From NCBI GenBank assembly GCA_913043225.1, contig CAJWLU010000002.1:192001-256000 (forward strand): 64,000 nt of DNA, in the 5' to 3' direction. The translations under genes and the position numbers were made by a program. Under the pieces are notes generated by a model. The model did not search any database. It had not been told where the DNA came from and saw nothing but the letters and a program-made list of their open reading frames with translations. Source of the stretch: an uncultured Acidobacteriota bacterium. GTDB lineage: Bacteria; Acidobacteriota; Vicinamibacteria; Vicinamibacterales; UBA8438. Positions 18,802-29,470 of the stretch are shown piece by piece (positions within the stretch are counted from its first letter, which is position 1; each line of letters starts with the position of its first letter).

Positions 18802-21800
18802 CCTTCTGGACCGTCCTTCGGAGGAGCCTGGCCCATTTTTGGCGCACCAACCTGGCCGTGGTCGCCGGGGTGGCGGTAGCCGTTTCCGTGCTGTCCGGTG
18901 CGTTTCTCGTGGGCAGCTCGGTTCGTGCGAGCCTGCGCGACTTGGCGTTGGAGCGGCTGGGGCGGGTCGACCATGTCGTCACCTCCGGGTTGTTCTTCCG
19001 CGACGAGTTGGCCGCCGAACTGGTTTCTTCGGGCGCGCTCGGGGAGGCCGCGTCGGAGGCAGTCCCGCTGATCGCCATCGAAGGACACACCACCCACCAG
19101 GAGAGCGGCAGTCGCGCCGGCGGTATCCAGGTCTACGGGGTGGATGCCAGGTTCTGGGAGTTCCACGGTCTCGAGCCGGGCGACCGAGTGCCCGAGGCTG
19201 GTGAGGTGCTGGTGTCAGAGGGCCTAGCCCGCGAGCTGGGGCTGTCGACTGACGAGACCCTACTGGTGCGGGTGCAGAAGCCCTCTTCGATCCCGGTCAG
19301 CTCACTGCACGGACGTCGCGATGATCTTGGGCAGACGATGCGCCTCCGGGTGCAGGCTGTGCTCGGACCCGATGAGCTTGGCGCCTTTTCGTTCCGACCG
19401 CAGCAGGGCGTGGCGCGCGCTGTGTTCGTACAGCTGGGACGGATGCAGCGCGAACTCGAGCTCGAGGCGCAAGCCAACACGCTGTTGCTCGGTGGGAGCT
19501 TAACGAAGGACGCCCCGGCCTCGGTCGAGGTCATCGAAACAGCGCTCCGGGCCACGACTCGGCTGGGAGATTTAGGGCTGCGGGTGCGCGAGCTCGATCC
19601 ACAGGGTGTGCTCGTCGTCGAGTCTGTCGCGGGGCTGCTGGACGACGATACGGTGGCGGCGGCCCGAGCCGCAGCGCTCGACGCCGGAATGCCTGACCAG
19701 TCGGTGCTGACCTATCTGGCTAACGAGATCCGGATGGGAGAGCGCGTGACGCCCTACTCGCTCGTCACCGGATTGGATCTCGCCCTGCTCGGGGTGTCGC
19801 CCCCGGCAGGCGGGGCTGTGCCACCGATCGTGCTCAACGACTGGACGGCCGAGGACTTGGACGCCGCCGTCGGCGACCGGATCGAGGTGGAGTACTTCCT
19901 ATGGGAGGACGCGGGCGCACTCCTCACCGAGGTGGCCGAGTTCGAAGTGGCCGCCGTCATCCCGATCGCAGGATTGGCCGCCGACCAGGACTTCGCCCCC
20001 GACTATCCAGGTATCACCGAGGCGACCGACGTTTCTGACTGGGACCCGCCCTTCCCGATCGACCTCGAACTCGTTCGTGACAAGGACGAGGATTACTGGG
20101 ACGAGTATCGTACCGTGGCCAAGGGCTTCGTGAGCTTGGAAGCAAGCCAGGCGTTGTGGGAGTCGCGGTGGGGTCGCGTTACTTCACTGCGGGTCGCGCC
20201 GCCGGCTGGTCTCGGTGCCTCGGCGACGCAGGCGTTTCGTGAGTCGTTCCGGAGCGCCCTCGACCCCCTGACTGCCGGGTTCGTCGTCTACCCGGCCAGG
20301 AGTCTGGCCCTCGAGGCGTCGGTCGGTGTCACCGACTTCGGCGAGTACTTCACCTACTTCAGCTTCTTCCTGGTGGTCTCAGCGCTGCTGTTGGCCAGCC
20401 TCTTCTTCCGGCTGGGGGTCGAACAGCGGTTGCGTGAGGTCGGAGCGCTGCAGGCGCTTGGGTTCGATCGGCGCGGTGTCCGGCGTCTGTTCTTGGGCGA
20501 AGCCGCGATCCTTTCTTTCGCCGGGAGTGTGCTCGGGATGGCCGGGGCTGTGGCCTATGCCGACGTCATCATGTGGGGCCTGCGCACGTGGTGGGTGGAT
20601 GCGGTTGGCACGACCCGGCTGATCCTGCACGTGTCGCTTTTCTCGCTGGGCGCCGGGCTGGCCGGGGGAATGCTGGCCGCCGTGGGGTCCATCGCCTGGA
20701 CACTGCGGTCGGTCGAGGCGGCGAGCCCGCGTGCCTTGATCAGCGGCTCACTGCCAGATTCGTCCAGCGCCGAGGGCGGGCCGTCCGTGCTCGTTCGGTG
20801 GGCCCCGGCGCTCCTGGCGTTACTTGGGCTGACGGCGCTCGGGGCGACATTGGCCGGCCTCATCGACGACACGGCCGGGTTCTTCAGCGCCGGTCTGTTG
20901 CTGCTGGCTGCGATGTTGACCCTATCCTGGGTGCTCCTGGCCGTGCAGGAGGGCCGCGCCGAGGCGCTTGCTCCCGGATGGTCAGTGGCACGGATCGGGG
21001 TCCGCAACACCACAGCTCGGCCCGGCCGGTCCGTGCTCTGCATCACGCTGATCGCCTTCGCCGCCTTTATCATCGTGGCCGTGGATGCGTTCCGGCGCGA
21101 CGGCTCGGCAGGCACCACCGACCCGAAGTCGGGTACCGGAGGCTACCCGTTGCTGGCCGACGCCCTGCTGCCGCTGGTGCATGACCTGTCTAGCGAGGAG
21201 GGCCGTACGGAACTTGGGATCTCAACCTTCGACGATGAGATCTTCGGGTCGGCGACTTTCGCACGTTTTCGGGTCCGACCTGGCGAAGATGCCAGTTGCT
21301 TGAACCTCTATCAGGCCAAGAACCCGAAGCTCCTGGCACCCGACCCGGCCTTCGTGGCCGAGGGGCGGTTCGGGTTCGGTGCCTCGCTGGCTGAGACTCC
21401 TGCGGAGGAAGCTAATCCTTGGCTGCTGCTGCGGCGCGAGTTCCCTGACGGCGCCATTCCCGCCATCGCCGACGCGACGTCGCTGGCCTACGCGCTTCAT
21501 CTGTCGGTTGGCGACGATTTCGTGCTGAATCGAGACAGCGACAACCCGATCACGTTGCGGATCGTCGCCGCACTGACCGACAGCATCTTCCAAGGAGAGT
21601 TGCTGATTGGCGAGACCGCGTTCCTCCGAGAGTTCCCAGAGTACGACGGTTATCGGTTCTTCTTGGTCAACAGTCCTGCGGAGCAGATCGGCGAGGTGAC
21701 CGCCGCGCTTGAGGATCGGCTTTCGGACTACGGCTTCGATATCACGTCGGCGTCCGAGCGGCTCGCCGCGTTCCACCGGGTGGAGAACACCTATCTGGCC

Positions 21801-22169
21801 ACCTTTCAGACGCTGGGAGCGCTCGGTCTGCTACTGGGGACCCTGGGGCTCGGCGCGGTGCTTCTCCGCAATGTGCTGGAGAGACGAAAGGAGCTCGCGC
21901 TGCTGCGGGCGGTAGGCTACGACCCCAGCGCGGTGTCGCGCATGGTCCTGGTGGAGAACGGCCTACTGCTGTTCGGCGGGCTGGGAACTGGGACCGTCTG
22001 TGCGGTTATCGCCATCGCGCCAGCCTTCCTCGAGCGGGGCGGCGGTTTTCCCTTTGCCTCTCTCGGTGGACTGCTGCTTGCCGTGGCGCTGGCTGGTCTG
22101 CTGTCCTCGCTCGTCGCCACCGTCGTGGCCGTGCGTTCGCCGTTGCTGGCCGCGCTTCGATCCGAGTAG
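18798..22169 (+). CDS. FtsX/MacB-like ABC permease with duplicated domains
   Basis: About 1120 aa; two TM clusters (QRLREVGALQALGF; ERRKELALLRAVGY) with large extracytoplasmic loops; ATGA overlap with ATPase. Confidence 0.88.
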   Translation: MTFWTVLRRSLAHFWRTNLAVVAGVAVAVSVLSGAFLVGSSVRASLRDLALERLGRVDHVVTSGLFFRDELAAELVSSGALGEAASEAVPLIAIEGHTTHQESGSRAGGIQVYGVDARFWEFHGLEPGDRVPEAGEVLVSEGLARELGLSTDETLLVRVQKPSSIPVSSLHGRRDDLGQTMRLRVQAVLGPDELGAFSFRPQQGVARAVFVQLGRMQRELELEAQANTLLLGGSLTKDAPASVEVIETALRATTRLGDLGLRVRELDPQGVLVVESVAGLLDDDTVAAARAAALDAGMPDQSVLTYLANEIRMGERVTPYSLVTGLDLALLGVSPPAGGAVPPIVLNDWTAEDLDAAVGDRIEVEYFLWEDAGALLTEVAEFEVAAVIPIAGLAADQDFAPDYPGITEATDVSDWDPPFPIDLELVRDKDEDYWDEYRTVAKGFVSLEASQALWESRWGRVTSLRVAPPAGLGASATQAFRESFRSALDPLTAGFVVYPARSLALEASVGVTDFGEYFTYFSFFLVVSALLLASLFFRLGVEQRLREVGALQALGFDRRGVRRLFLGEAAILSFAGSVLGMAGAVAYADVIMWGLRTWWVDAVGTTRLILHVSLFSLGAGLAGGMLAAVGSIAWTLRSVEAASPRALISGSLPDSSSAEGGPSVLVRWAPALLALLGLTALGATLAGLIDDTAGFFSAGLLLLAAMLTLSWVLLAVQEGRAEALAPGWSVARIGVRNTTARPGRSVLCITLIAFAAFIIVAVDAFRRDGSAGTTDPKSGTGGYPLLADALLPLVHDLSSEEGRTELGISTFDDEIFGSATFARFRVRPGEDASCLNLYQAKNPKLLAPDPAFVAEGRFGFGASLAETPAEEANPWLLLRREFPDGAIPAIADATSLAYALHLSVGDDFVLNRDSDNPITLRIVAALTDSIFQGELLIGETAFLREFPEYDGYRFFLVNSPAEQIGEVTAALEDRLSDYGFDITSASERLAAFHRVENTYLATFQTLGALGLLLGTLGLGAVLLRNVLERRKELALLRAVGYDPSAVSRMVLVENGLLLFGGLGTGTVCAVIAIAPAFLERGGGFPFASLGGLLLAVALAGLLSSLVATVVAVRSPLLAALRSE

Positions 22170-22279
22170 CGCCGTGACCCTTGCCCTCAGGTCGAACGCT
22201 CCATCGAAAAGATCAAACGGATGATTCGCGAAGATCCGCGGATGCTGCCTAGGCGCCCAGAGCCTCCAGTGAAGACTCC

Positions 22280-24352
22280 ATGACGGTGTTAGACGCCAGA
22301 GCGGCTGAGGTGCCCCGCGCCCGGGTCGACCCGACCGGCTTCAAGCATCACGGCGTGACCCGGGTCGACGACTACTACTGGTTGCGGGAACGGGGCAGTG
22401 CCGAGGTCACGGGCTACCTGGAGGCGGAGAACAGTTACACCGAAGAGGTCATGGCGCCGACTGGTGACTTGCAGGAGACGCTCTTTGAAGAGATCAAAGG
22501 GCGGATCAAGCAGACCGACATGTCGGTGCCCTATCGACAGGGAGACTACACCTACTTCACCCGTTACGAGAATGGTCGCGAGTATCCGATCCACTGTCGG
22601 CGACCGTTGACTGCCGCCAATGACACCGGGGTGGACCAGGTCCTCGTCGACGTCAACGTCGTGGCCGAGGGGCATGACTTCTGCCAGGTGGCTGGGCTGG
22701 TGGTCAGTCCGGACCAGCGGCGGCTCGCCTATTCCACCGACCTCGAAGGACGTCGCGTCTACACCGTTCGTATCAAGGACCTGGAGACCGGCGAGCTGCT
22801 CGCGGACACACTCGAGAATGTCACGCCCAACGTGACCTGGGCGGCTGATAGCCAGACCCTCTTTTACACGCGGCAGGATCCGACGACGCTTCGCTGGCAT
22901 CAGATCTACCGCCACCGGCTCGGGACGCCACAGGAGGAAGACGTCCTCGTCTATCAGGAAGACGACGACACCTTCAACTGTGAGGTGGGCAAGACCCGTT
23001 CGAAGCAGTTCTTGCTGATCGCGTCGTCACAGACGGTGTCGACCGAGTATCGCTACCTCAACGCTGATACGCCCGACGGCGAGTTTCAGCTCTTCCTTGG
23101 GCGCGAGCGCGATCACGAATATCACCTTGACCATTTCCAGGGCCGTTTCTTCATCCGGACCAACCGCGAGGCACAGAACTTCAAGCTGATGGAGACGGCC
23201 GAGCAGGAGTTGTCCGAGGAGCGTTGGTCGGTGCTGGTGCCCCACAGCGACGATGTGTTACTCGGTGCGTTCGAGCTGTTCGACGACTATCTCGTGCTTC
23301 AGGAGCGACGCGAAGGATTGGTACATCTGCATGTGCGTCCCTGGGCAGGGGATGGGGCGCACCACGTCGCCTTTGACGAGCCGGTCTTCGACAGCTACAT
23401 CGGCGTCAACCGAGAGCCGGACACGCAGGTTTTGCGTTTTGGCTACGAGTCGCTGACCACGCCGTCCTCCACCTACGACTACGACATGGCGAGCCGTAAC
23501 CGGATCCTGTTGAAGCGGGAGGAGGTGCTGGGCGGCTTCGACCCCGAGCAGTACGAAGCAGAGCGGCTGTTCGCCACTGCTGCCGACGGCGAGCGGGTGC
23601 CGATCTCTCTGGTGGCTGGGAAGGGTACGCCTCGAGACGGGTCGGCGCCGCTGCTGCTTTATGGCTACGGTGCCTACGGCATCTCCATGGATCCGGCTTT
23701 CAACTCTGCGCGGTTGAGCCTGCTCGACCGGGGGTTCATCTATGCCATTGCCCACATCCGTGGCGGGCAGGAGCTCGGGCGGCGGTGGTACGACGCCGGC
23801 CGTTTGGGACAGAAGCAGAACACGTTCTCTGACTTCATCGCCTGCGCCGAGTTCCTGGTTCGCGAACGGCGCACGGGCGCAGGCCAACTGTTCGCCATGG
23901 GAGGAAGCGCGGGTGGATTGCTGCTGGGGGCCGTTGTGAATCAGCGGCCAGACCTGTTTGCTGGCGCGGTCGCTCAGGTCCCCTTCGTCGACGTGGTCAC
24001 GACGATGCTCGACGAGACGATCCCCTTGACCACAGGCGAATACGATGAGTGGGGTAACCCGAGCGAGCGGCAGGCGTTCGAGGACATCCTGGCCTATTCG
24101 CCCTATGACAACGTCACCGCACAGGATTATCCCGCGCTCCTGGTTCTGGCGGGCCTACACGACTCGCAAGTACAGTACTGGGAGCCGGCCAAGTGGGTGG
24201 CTAAGCTCCGCGCGTTCAAGACCGACAATCGGCCCCTGTTGTTGAAGACCAACATGGACGCCGGTCACGGTGGAGTGTCCGGGCGCTACCGTCGCTACCG
24301 TGAAGTGGCTCTCCAGTACGCCTTTCTGCTGGCCGAGGCCGATCTCGTCTGA
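22280..24352 (+). CDS. ptrB: Oligopeptidase B (S9A)
   Basis: DDYYWLR, GGSAGG nucleophile, DSQVQYWEPAKW, AGHGG. Confidence 0.92.
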   Translation: MTVLDARAAEVPRARVDPTGFKHHGVTRVDDYYWLRERGSAEVTGYLEAENSYTEEVMAPTGDLQETLFEEIKGRIKQTDMSVPYRQGDYTYFTRYENGREYPIHCRRPLTAANDTGVDQVLVDVNVVAEGHDFCQVAGLVVSPDQRRLAYSTDLEGRRVYTVRIKDLETGELLADTLENVTPNVTWAADSQTLFYTRQDPTTLRWHQIYRHRLGTPQEEDVLVYQEDDDTFNCEVGKTRSKQFLLIASSQTVSTEYRYLNADTPDGEFQLFLGRERDHEYHLDHFQGRFFIRTNREAQNFKLMETAEQELSEERWSVLVPHSDDVLLGAFELFDDYLVLQERREGLVHLHVRPWAGDGAHHVAFDEPVFDSYIGVNREPDTQVLRFGYESLTTPSSTYDYDMASRNRILLKREEVLGGFDPEQYEAERLFATAADGERVPISLVAGKGTPRDGSAPLLLYGYGAYGISMDPAFNSARLSLLDRGFIYAIAHIRGGQELGRRWYDAGRLGQKQNTFSDFIACAEFLVRERRTGAGQLFAMGGSAGGLLLGAVVNQRPDLFAGAVAQVPFVDVVTTMLDETIPLTTGEYDEWGNPSERQAFEDILAYSPYDNVTAQDYPALLVLAGLHDSQVQYWEPAKWVAKLRAFKTDNRPLLLKTNMDAGHGGVSGRYRRYREVALQYAFLLAEADLV

Positions 24353-25883: not shown

Positions 25884-26317
25884 GTTGTCTTCTCCTGTTC
25901 CGACGGTTTTATTCCGCGACTGAGGAGCGCGACTGCTTGGTTGAACACCAGGCTGACGCCTCGCCCGTCAAGCAGTCGAGCCGCGACCTCAGGTGACGTC
26001 CACTGCCGTTGTCTGACCATTTGTTCGTCCCACTCGTCGTCGACCTGCTCCGCTGTAAGCAGATATACGGCGACGGTGTCGGTGCCTCCGTACTTGGTGA
26101 TGTCATAGTAGCCGACCGGGTCGCCAACCACACGGCCATGCACGCCAGCCTCCTCCTCCGCCTCGCGGCCTGCCGTCTCGTGCGGACTGTCTCACGGGTC
26201 GATGAAACCCTTTGGGATCGACCATTTCCCAGAGCTGATTGTGGTGATCAGACAGACCTCAAGGCCGCCCCTGCTGAGTCGGTAGGGGACGGCGGCGGCT
26301 TGCTGCACATCCGGCAT
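25880..26317 (-). pseudogene. NUDIX hydrolase interrupted by in-frame TGA
   Basis: QAAAVPYR...WSIPKGFIDP*DSPHETAGREAEEEAG; TGA at 26192-26194 lies inside the Nudix box and both halves share a frame. Confidence 0.8.
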
Positions 26318-26730
26318 CACCGGTCGGGCAATTGTCTGGCCAGCCAGAGGGTGGCGAGCCCCAGCGGGATAACGAGCGGACCCTCGAACAGGGTCCAGGA
26401 CATCGGGAGGCCCTCGTAGGTGTCGATGCCCAGCAGCGCGACTCCGAAGAGGGCCTGCGCCCATCCCAGGTAGATGAGTACCTCTCGGTGGCGGGTGAGG
26501 TCGAAGGACACCACCCACATCAGTCCCCCCAGCATCGCGTAGAAGGCCGAGGTCGAACGGGCCAGATAGCCGACGATCGGGTCTCGAGGTAGCTCGCCGA
26601 GTCCCAGCCACGCATGGATGCTGACCATCCACGACTCGGGTGCGACGATGAAAATCAGGGCGAAGAGCTCGATGGTACCGGCCACCCGCAGTAACCACCG
26701 GAAGATGCGGTCGCGGGCGTCTTGACGCAT
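26317..26730 (-). CDS. Hypothetical membrane protein (about 4 TM)
   Basis: 137 aa, hydrophobic helices, TGATG coupling to the NUDIX gene. Confidence 0.7.
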   Translation of the reverse strand: MRQDARDRIFRWLLRVAGTIELFALIFIVAPESWMVSIHAWLGLGELPRDPIVGYLARSTSAFYAMLGGLMWVVSFDLTRHREVLIYLGWAQALFGVALLGIDTYEGLPMSWTLFEGPLVIPLGLATLWLARQLPDR

Positions 26731-26763: not shown

Positions 26764-27222
26764 CTACTGCCGGCTGCGAGGCTGATGAGTGCCGAAGACC
26801 TCCAGCTCACCGTCTTCGGTGAACGAGTAGCTCGAGTACTGTCGCCCGCCGGAAATTCCTTCCATGCCCGGCGAGCCGATCGGCATACCCGGTACCGCGA
26901 TGCCCTTGACGTCAGGCCGTTCGGTCAGCAGTTTCTTGATGTCCTCTGCGGGGACGTGACCTTCGACCACGTAGCCATCGACGATCGCGGTGTGGCACGA
27001 CCCGAGCCGTGGCGGCACGCCCTCTTCGATCTTCTTGGGCGTCACGTCAGGCATGTCCGTGGTTGTCACCTTGAATCCGGCGTCTTTGAGATGATTGACC
27101 CATCCCATGCAACAGCCTCAAGTCGGGGCCTTGAAGACCTCCACTACCGGTTCCTGGCTGCGAACGGTCAGGGAGCCGATGCCGACCAGGGCGGCGAACA
27201 GCGCGATCTGAAGCTTACGCAT
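26764..27222 (-). CDS. DUF411/CopG-like secreted metal-binding protein, candidate selenoprotein (UGCC)
   Basis: GGAGG RBS, signal peptide, VEVFKAPT-TGA-GCC-MGWVNHL, then SCHTAIVDGYVVEGHVPA and AVPGMPIGSPGME in the same frame. Confidence 0.8.
27088..27106 (-). promoter_or_regulatory. Putative bacterial SECIS hairpin
   Basis: GGGAUGG-GUCAA-UCAUCUC stem-loop starting 11 nt after the UGA. Confidence 0.55.
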
Positions 27223-27274
27223 GACGTGTGATCCTCCGCGTGAACCTGCGCCCCTGAGGGCGTCGGACTTCAGG

Positions 27275-27845: not shown

Positions 27846-28724
27846 TCATTGATTCTGCCAGCGCCGAAGCAGGTCGTCGTGTAACCGACAGGTCTCGTCG
27901 GCGGTTTCGGCGTTGAGCAGGATGAAGCTGTCCTCGGTATTGACCAGCAGATAGGGTGGTTCGTCCGCCCGGGTGAACAGGAGCCCGTCGCCCAGGGTGT
28001 GGACTCGGAACCGGCCTCGCCGAGTGCCCCCGGCGGAGAACCCCCGAAGTCGGTGACGTACCCGAGGGTGGCCAGGTTCGAGGGAGACGGACGTGATGTC
28101 GTCGAGCTCGATCGTGGCGCCGTAGTTCCCGCTGACGATGAACTCTGCGGCGGTGACCTGCGCGGTTGACGGCTGACCGCTGCGGTAGAACATCACGCCG
28201 GTCACGAGGAGGAGGGGTACGCCAATGACGATGACCGGCGCGAGAGCGACGCCAGGAATCGTGGAGTCGCCGGCTACCTCCAGTTCTTTCTCCTCACGGC
28301 TCTCGAATCCGTGGACCGCGATGGAAGGATTGTGCCGGCTCAGGATGGCGACGAATCCGTCCCGGTCACGGGGTGATACCTGAGTTCGGCCAGTCGCATG
28401 CACGAGCTCGATCCGGTCCAGAGAGAGGGCTAGCGCCGAGAGCAGGCTCCGGCTCGGTCGCAGCGAGCGGATTGAGTCGAGGGGGATCAGTTCCCTGAGC
28501 CACATGCACCGTACGTCGAGCTCGTAATTCGTCACCGTGTAGCTGGTCGAGGAGAGTCCCCAGCCTATCAGCGCGACCGGAGTGAAGACGACCAGCGGGA
28601 CCCAGATGTGGCCCTCGGTCGCCGCGCGCCCGGCGGGGTACAGCCCGATGAGGACAGGAAGGACGGTGGCGGTGATGACCCAGCCGTCGATCTTTAACCG
28701 GAAACGCAGATCGGTCGCAGTCAC
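27846..28724 (-). CDS. Membrane protein with bacterial PH-like domains
   Basis: FRLKIDGW, two TM, SALALSLDRIEL, VSPRDRDGF; second TM plus PH-like segment; GTGA overlap with plsC. Confidence 0.65.
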   Translation of the reverse strand: MTATDLRFRLKIDGWVITATVLPVLIGLYPAGRAATEGHIWVPLVVFTPVALIGWGLSSTSYTVTNYELDVRCMWLRELIPLDSIRSLRPSRSLLSALALSLDRIELVHATGRTQVSPRDRDGFVAILSRHNPSIAVHGFESREEKELEVAGDSTIPGVALAPVIVIGVPLLLVTGVMFYRSGQPSTAQVTAAEFIVSGNYGATIELDDITSVSLEPGHPRVRHRLRGFSAGGTRRGRFRVHTLGDGLLFTRADEPPYLLVNTEDSFILLNAETADETCRLHDDLLRRWQNQ

Positions 28725-29470
28725 GAATTCGCTCCGGCACGTTTGGCCGACCACTCGTCGAGTGTGTCCTGGATCGCGGCGCGGGTATGTGAGATCAGCT
28801 CGTTAATCTGGGCGTCGGTGTAGTCGGCTGTGTCGATCGGCTCGCCGATGATGACATCGACCCGACCTGGTCGCGGAGCCAGAGTTGTCTTAGGGAGCAG
28901 AGCAAAAGTCCCGCAGATGGTGACCGGAATGATCGGCACGCCCGCCTTCATCGCGATCTTGAATGTGCCTGGTTGGAATTTCTGGAGCTGTCCATCGGGC
29001 GTCCGGGTGCCCTCCGGGAACACGGCCAGTGAGCGCCCGCCGCGCACCCCCTCGATGGTGCGTCGCACGCTGGCTACCGTGCGCCTGGCGTTGCCCCGGT
29101 CGATCGGAAAGTGTCCCGCGGTCCACAGATGCCAGCCCATGAACGGGACGTAGAATAGCTCCCGCTTTGCCATGATTCTGAACGGGTAGGGCAGGTAGGC
29201 AAAGAGCGCCGGTGTGTCGATCAGACTGGAATGGTTGGCCATGTAGACGTAGGGCCGTCCAGGCTCGACGTGTTCGTTGCCGTGGACCCGGATCCGCGCG
29301 AAGATCGACCACGCCACGAGCCGGCACCACCATCGAGCGCACCAGAACTGCCGATTACCCGTCCGGTCGAATGGCCAGACCAGGAGCGACAGCGACCCCA
29401 TCACCACCGTGTGGGTGTACCAGAGCAGGTTGGCGAGCGGCGCCCAGAGATAGACGAGGAGGAGTCGCAC
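28721..29470 (-). CDS. plsC: 1-acyl-sn-glycerol-3-phosphate acyltransferase
   Basis: NHSSLID, AKREL, FPEGTR, IIPVTI. Confidence 0.88.
   Translation of the reverse strand: MRLLLVYLWAPLANLLWYTHTVVMGSLSLLVWPFDRTGNRQFWCARWWCRLVAWSIFARIRVHGNEHVEPGRPYVYMANHSSLIDTPALFAYLPYPFRIMAKRELFYVPFMGWHLWTAGHFPIDRGNARRTVASVRRTIEGVRGGRSLAVFPEGTRTPDGQLQKFQPGTFKIAMKAGVPIIPVTICGTFALLPKTTLAPRPGRVDVIIGEPIDTADYTDAQINELISHTRAAIQDTLDEWSAKRAGANS

Follow-up and report, generated by a model that had tools for sequence, protein, structure and literature searches.

CopG of Pseudomonas aeruginosa, a member of the DUF411 family (PF04214), is described as a periplasmic thioredoxin-like copper-thiol oxidoreductase that binds a cysteine-bridged Cu4 cluster through a CxCC motif and two methionines (PMC7558416, PMC8456105, PMC9240420). 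One of these reports names CxCC and M-x6-M as copper-binding motifs and describes CutG of Rhodobacter capsulatus as largely dispensable for copper tolerance (PMC8456105). Bacterial UxxC selenoproteins (Trx, Grx, DsbA-like, TIGR02187, SaoT and the UGC-containing TlpA family) have a thioredoxin-like fold in which selenocysteine (Sec) takes the place of the N-terminal Cys of a CxxC motif, where helix 1 begins, and they are encoded with an in-frame UGA and a hairpin within the coding region. Sec also replaces Cys in the heavy-metal motifs of predicted metal-handling selenoproteins (CopZ-family 2Fe-2S proteins, E1-E2 ATPases with UxxC, the SO_0444 Cu/Zn transporter and MerT-like proteins), whose folds are unrelated to DUF411 and none of which is a DUF411 protein (PMC13188914).

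The gene described here lies on the minus strand at positions 26764..27222 of the window, by which we mean the whole 64,000-nucleotide stretch of DNA that was analysed; the window features given below are all on this strand. Its product resembles CopG and CutG in its CxCC and M-x6-M motifs and its thioredoxin-like domain, and would also share their N-terminal export signal. Unlike in CopG, the first Cys of the motif (C13 in PDB 6WIS) is encoded by TGA and accompanied by a SECIS-type hairpin, and unlike copG and cutG the genes of the host's own taxonomic family stand outside any cop, cus or cut cluster. With the UxxC selenoproteins it shares the fold, the Sec position, the in-frame UGA and the hairpin within the coding region, yet it belongs to a different protein family, has extra Cys, His and Met metal ligands and carries a UGCC motif.

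The 152-codon frame runs from an ATG at 27222-27220 to a TAG at 26766-26764, and the TGA at codon 35 (27118..27120, context APT*GCC) is its single internal stop. The read-through protein matched Pfam PF04214 (E 7.5e-29, 99.7 bits against a cut-off of 27) and P. aeruginosa CopG 6WIS (E 1e-31), with the TGA opposite Cys13 of the CGCC motif. The original prediction had this TGA split the gene exactly at the first Cys of a PTCGCC motif, which frame reading and the 6WIS alignment confirmed, and it placed the remaining family motifs in frame downstream, which was borne out by the same two matches and by a 123-sequence alignment. With U read as C, the positions of the U-G-C-C motif (UxxC/UxCC, 27109..27120) were invariant in this alignment, as were C37, C38 and the candidate metal ligands C76, H77, H89, M113 and M120 (26863..26997), the last two of which form the M-x6-M pair.

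Upstream of the TGA, the predicted ribosome-binding site was found as a Shine-Dalgarno-like GGAGG 10 nt 5' of the start codon (27233..27237), while the predicted signal peptide stands as a putative one, based on hydrophobicity, upstream-frame conservation and homologue ends. This Sec-pathway signal peptide would cover approximately residues 1-22 (27157..27222): the N-terminus is basic and then hydrophobic, with an 11-residue Kyte-Doolittle mean of up to 2.3, an open hydrophobic frame precedes the TGA in 143/146 TGA loci, and the signal regions of homologues have ends of the xRA-QE type. From these features we infer a signal peptide with cleavage before Gln23. Scanning for promoters and terminators produced no useful signal close to the gene.

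An AlphaFold2 model built from 123 sequences, with U folded as C, reached a pLDDT of 92.5, and Foldseek placed it closest to CopG 6WIS and 6WJE (TM 0.87-0.89, rmsd 1.4-1.9, 46% identity), followed by thioredoxins and glutaredoxins (E >0.01). In the model, residue 35 falls in the stretch from strand 1 to helix 1 of the thioredoxin-like fold, where it is the N-terminal residue of a thioredoxin-type CxxC. By analogy with CopG, a copper role for this protein is somewhat probable, the copper chemistry being drawn from homology.

DUF411/CopG genes often, but not always, adjoin copper-resistance genes. The genomic surroundings, surveyed with six copper-gene queries in 1.5-kb flanks, differed between lineages. 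No copper-gene homologue was found within 1.5 kb of the 31 Sec loci of the host's family or of ten other genome Sec loci, whereas 18/80 Cys loci had one; among the matches listed, 12/108 metagenome Sec loci did as well. Neighbours in the window are a PNPOx-like gene upstream, PH-domain, acyltransferase, LON-domain, NIPSNAP and SnoaL genes, and a membrane-like ORF of 137 residues without a Pfam match directly downstream (26317-26730). The multicopper oxidase and two heavy-metal ATPases of the host are sited elsewhere in its genome. Overall, the Sec form has copper genes as neighbours in some lineages, but in the host's family it is a stand-alone gene, which makes a housekeeping redox role possible. 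The periplasmic metal-redox protein of the original prediction is backed by homology to CopG, while the genes around it include no copper genes.

These observations bear on the alternative that survives best, namely that Sec is real but the protein in this lineage is a thiol/selenol oxidoreductase of general function in the periplasm, or a cuproenzyme-assembly chaperone, and not a copper-resistance factor. The distance from copper genes at all 31 loci of the host's family favours it, together with the genes that recur there instead (NUDIX, PNPOx-like, acyltransferase, holA, rpsT, citrate synthase and DUF520) and the thioredoxins and glutaredoxins that come next in the structural comparison. 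However, the CopG-specific extra ligands C37, C76, H77, H89, M113 and M120 are all invariant, and some other Sec forms adjoin homologues of multicopper oxidase, CusB/F, cupredoxin or P1B-ATPase, so that we regard this alternative as rather unlikely.

Sec incorporation depends on the host, and the original prediction held that a genome lacking the machinery would speak against it. In this genome (3.85 Mb, 96% complete, 64% GC) selA (E 6e-132), selB and selD (both above cut-off) and selC were all present, the last as a tRNA-Sec scoring 69.9 bits with a TCA anticodon. The SelD of the host (C10, ~20030-22300) has Cys, not Sec, in its catalytic motif, and is fused at its N-terminus to a domain that by eye looks oxidoreductase-like. 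The prediction of Sec at codon 35 was thus supported by a full Sec machinery and by a TGA that is kept in close orthologues (see below), and codon 35 is almost certainly read as Sec, although incorporation itself is a conclusion drawn from these lines of evidence. A further possibility is that UGA encodes Cys or Trp here, either because the codon is reassigned across the genome or because a variant Sec system inserts Cys. Some bacteria do have tRNA-Sec-like systems of the latter type, and Cys occupies the site in every non-TGA homologue, which agrees with such a reading. Against it, TGA terminates 663/1512 long open frames of the host genome and is therefore not reassigned; ARAGORN identified SeC as the only tRNA with a TCA anticodon and found a Trp tRNA with its normal CCA anticodon; neither SelA nor SelD is disrupted; and the genome encodes canonical selenoproteins. 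We consider decoding as Cys or Trp highly improbable.

Seven other in-frame-TGA genes of the host (G000) matched FdhA, peroxiredoxin-like, TIGR02187, rhodanese-like and UGSC families, four of the seven above a curated cut-off. They lie at C23:51172-54183 (L257), C6:60725-61954 (L258), C14:23342-24097 (L259), C11:65244-65819 (L260) and C20:2702-3142 (L261), and, for the two UGSC genes, at C28:37493-38050 (L262) and 28495-29055 (L263); by sequence they are candidate selenoproteins of already catalogued kinds. In the FdhA, Prx-like and TIGR02187 genes the hairpins have GU or GGU loops at +18 to +21, while in the UGSC genes the hairpin loop begins approximately 12 nt past the UGA, compared with 16-37 nt in the consensus model. 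The Prx-like candidate L260 and the rhodanese-like candidate L261 have hydrophobic N-termini resembling export signals, and the host may therefore export several selenoproteins. Further Prx-like and DsbA-like TGA contexts were seen on contigs C1, C50 and C15. Scanning the whole genome for SECIS elements passed 1957/97505 TGAs, a specificity too low for the selenoproteome to be delimited in this way.

The gene was present in 44/61 related genomes, with TGA in 33 and Cys (TGC or TGT) in 11. Within the host's family, a marine lineage, 31 of the 34 gene-bearing genomes had TGA, spanning 14 genera, and the three Cys forms came from a single genus, g10; the TGA is accordingly not the private nonsense mutation that the original prediction had named as its possible undoing. 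Codon 35 was TGA at 41, TGC at 57 and TGT at 26 of 124 genome loci, and no other codon was seen there; because two tools returned some of the same genomes, the distinct sequences number 38 TGA and 79 Cys. The closest named homologues came from Acidobacteriota and Vicinamibacterales genomes. Among 80 named GTDB loci, eight had TGA, including one Desulfuromonadales and one Anaerolinea genome, both selA-positive. In a sample of the phylum, 23/161 genomes had the gene, and all nine with TGA at codon 35 also had selA. A metagenome pattern scan returned at least 120 matches, 117 of them with a blastp match; ten were dropped (three without homology and seven with fewer than 40 downstream residues), and at least 110 contigs were retained as TGA forms, which indicate breadth and not frequency, the pattern itself imposing TGA, both Cys codons, Trp and Val/Ile.

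Presence of the TGA went together with the Sec machinery. selA was found in 32 of the 33 TGA-bearing relatives, and the 33rd (G032, 86% complete) has a tRNA-Sec; TGC is the codon in G041 and G060, the only two genomes that carry the gene and lack Sec machinery. This co-occurrence is consistent with Sec decoding but weak, because most genomes sampled have selA (58/61 relatives and 128/161 genomes of the phylum sample). The g10 Cys forms (L034, L037 and L118), whose genomes retain selA, have a hairpin weakened to -4.1 kcal/mol; a clade with support of 97/92, though without internal resolution, unites them with 12 Sec forms of the family. This placing, together with the family-wide distribution of TGA, suggests that the genus reverted from Sec to Cys and that its hairpin decayed. 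The number of Sec/Cys changes was 14 on a FastTree tree of 221 sequences and 10 on an IQ-TREE tree of 77 selected sequences, of which well-supported branches force only two. One genome, G115, carries TGA and TGT paralogues of DUF411 (L254 and L256).

The same loci allow a split gene to be weighed, in which the TGA would stop translation and a restart at Met39, with GAGG (formed by the TGA and the next codon) as ribosome-binding site, would yield a 114-residue cytoplasmic protein. An ATG does lie four codons past the TGA, and exactly this 114-residue downstream fragment is present in protein databases. Codon 39 is, however, ATG, GTG or TTG in only 20/140 TGA sequences, the two Cys codons that a restart would skip are kept in 38/38 genome-derived TGA sequences (the metagenome set having been selected for them), and the signal-like frame upstream is conserved as described above, leaving this reading with a very slim chance. 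A nonsense mutation, pseudogene or assembly error, which the two fragments of the annotation might suggest, is refuted by conservation and can be neglected, given that the TGA occurs in 14 genera of the family and in other phyla, that neither TAA nor TAG was seen at codon 35, that the frame has no further internal stop, and that independent RNA-run contigs carry the TGA. Contigs from the marine RNA runs X1, X2 and X3 (two studies) bridge it with 1, 2 and 2 differences, all elsewhere, and one from X6 does so with 7 differences, of which 4 were located; such contigs may include DNA and are uninformative on expression level or strand.

Downstream of the TGA, folding and homologue comparison identified a bSECIS-type hairpin (27087..27107) with an 8-bp stem and the 5-nt loop GUCAA (27099-27095), spanning +11 to +31 past the UGA; the loop occupies +19..+23 and begins 18 nt after the UGA, the energy is -7.6 to -8.4 kcal/mol, and a weaker lower stem reaches 27117/27079. 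The original prediction of a GGUC-containing hairpin 11 nt past the UGA was right as to the hairpin, the spacer being 10 nt, or 11 nt when the terminal U-A pair is left out. The GGUC letters, for their part, stem from the Trp-Val codons and are present in Cys homologues too, and GGUC by itself is therefore not evidence. Taken alone, the hairpin of the window was not significant (z -1.39 for a 61-nt region; p 0.26 against synonymous recoding). A z of -3.3 was discounted as biased, the segment having been cut around the hairpin. The hairpin is convincing only through comparison across homologues.

Published bSECIS constraints comprise a loop of 3-9 nt, a stem of 4-16 bp, a G within the first two loop positions, a spacing of 16-37 nt and an energy of at most -7.5 kcal/mol, as given in PMC13188914. 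We applied our own implementation of them, not bSECISearch, in place of a -7.0 kcal threshold that had been picked after viewing the data. The hairpin of the window passed (loop 5, stem 8, loop start GU, spacing 18), clearing the energy limit narrowly (-7.6 against -7.5). In a set of 140 TGA sequences, made up of genome loci and of metagenome loci among the matches listed, 72 passed, compared with 5/79 Cys sequences and 553/6000 random genomic TGAs; several sequences of the host's family were among the 68/140 that failed this strict rule, and L102 and L114 have weak hairpins. A perfect stem of at least 7 bp was found in 105/140 TGA sequences versus 8/79 Cys sequences, and for genome loci only, the mean energy of the +10..+36 segment was -8.4 kcal/mol in 38 TGA sequences versus -5.4 in 79 Cys sequences.

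The pairing itself was also maintained. At the pair +19:+27, TGA sequences had G-C in 93 cases, G-U in 22 and A-U in 17, with 8 mismatched, and a stem-pairing Leu codon, CTA, which is outside the eight commonest codons of the Cys set, occurred in 25/140. Over 68 disjoint Sec pairs, synonymous change was seen at 92/288 codons of the upper hairpin versus 1223/2405 control codons, and over 36 disjoint Cys pairs at 56/109 versus 707/1271. These counts overstate significance because related sequences are not independent. The hairpin tracks the TGA, with compensatory pairs and suppressed synonymous change.

Together, the data make it very likely that the product is an exported member of CopG/DUF411 with Sec at residue 35, inserted with the help of SelB and the hairpin, and somewhat more likely than not that it performs a CopG-like copper/thiol job. 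SelB would bind the hairpin, 11-31 nt past the UGA, and bring Sec-tRNA(Sec) to that codon, and the full 152-residue precursor would then be exported, leaving a mature protein of approximately 130 residues that would take the CopG fold, with Sec at the N-terminal, reactive-thiol position of the thioredoxin-type CxxC (UGCC). Its likeliest job would be that of CopG, a periplasmic copper/thiol oxidoreductase binding copper through the CxCC, His and Met ligands. The protein could thereby shift the Cu(I)/Cu(II) balance, and a selenolate might make the site more reactive or less prone to over-oxidation. When Sec is scarce, the UGA would terminate translation after 34 codons and no functional protein would result. 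Export, copper binding and the benefit of selenium are our deductions from homology and sequence features. More tentatively, Sec35 could be a direct ligand of the tetranuclear copper cluster of CopG. To our knowledge, no protein in which Sec ligates a copper cluster has been characterised.

DUF411/PF04214/CopG has no row in Table 1 of the 119-family 2026 selenoprotein inventory (PMC13188914), and a term search did not find it in the main texts of BSepDB and deep-Sep (PMC13326102, PMC12013277). No NCBIfam model matched the Sec protein above cut-off, and searches of the open literature, judged by titles and the openings of abstracts, found no report of a DUF411 selenoprotein. Among the best 120 database homologues, none had U and 115 had Cys; the other five, which are also the closest (69-97% identity), are all fragments of 108-114 residues starting from Met39, without signal peptide and active-site motif. 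Another database protein, P0017 (230 residues), contains two copies of the DUF411 domain in tandem, with the start of the first copy missing. The gene is a real and apparently uncatalogued Sec variant of CopG/DUF411, and the evidence points to a widespread selenoprotein family shortened by gene callers.

This family adds an apparently uncatalogued and widespread member to the bacterial selenoproteome and corrects a systematic annotation error, in which gene products are cut at the TGA. It also connects the use of selenium with periplasmic copper chemistry, insofar as the copper role suggested by homology applies. Should Sec35 ligate copper, the family would represent a widespread natural copper-selenolate cluster protein in the periplasm, and the repeated Cys/Sec switches, including the g10 reversion and G115 with both forms, would provide matched natural pairs. 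In either case, natural Sec and Cys orthologue pairs allow a test of the effect of selenium at a copper-thiol redox site.
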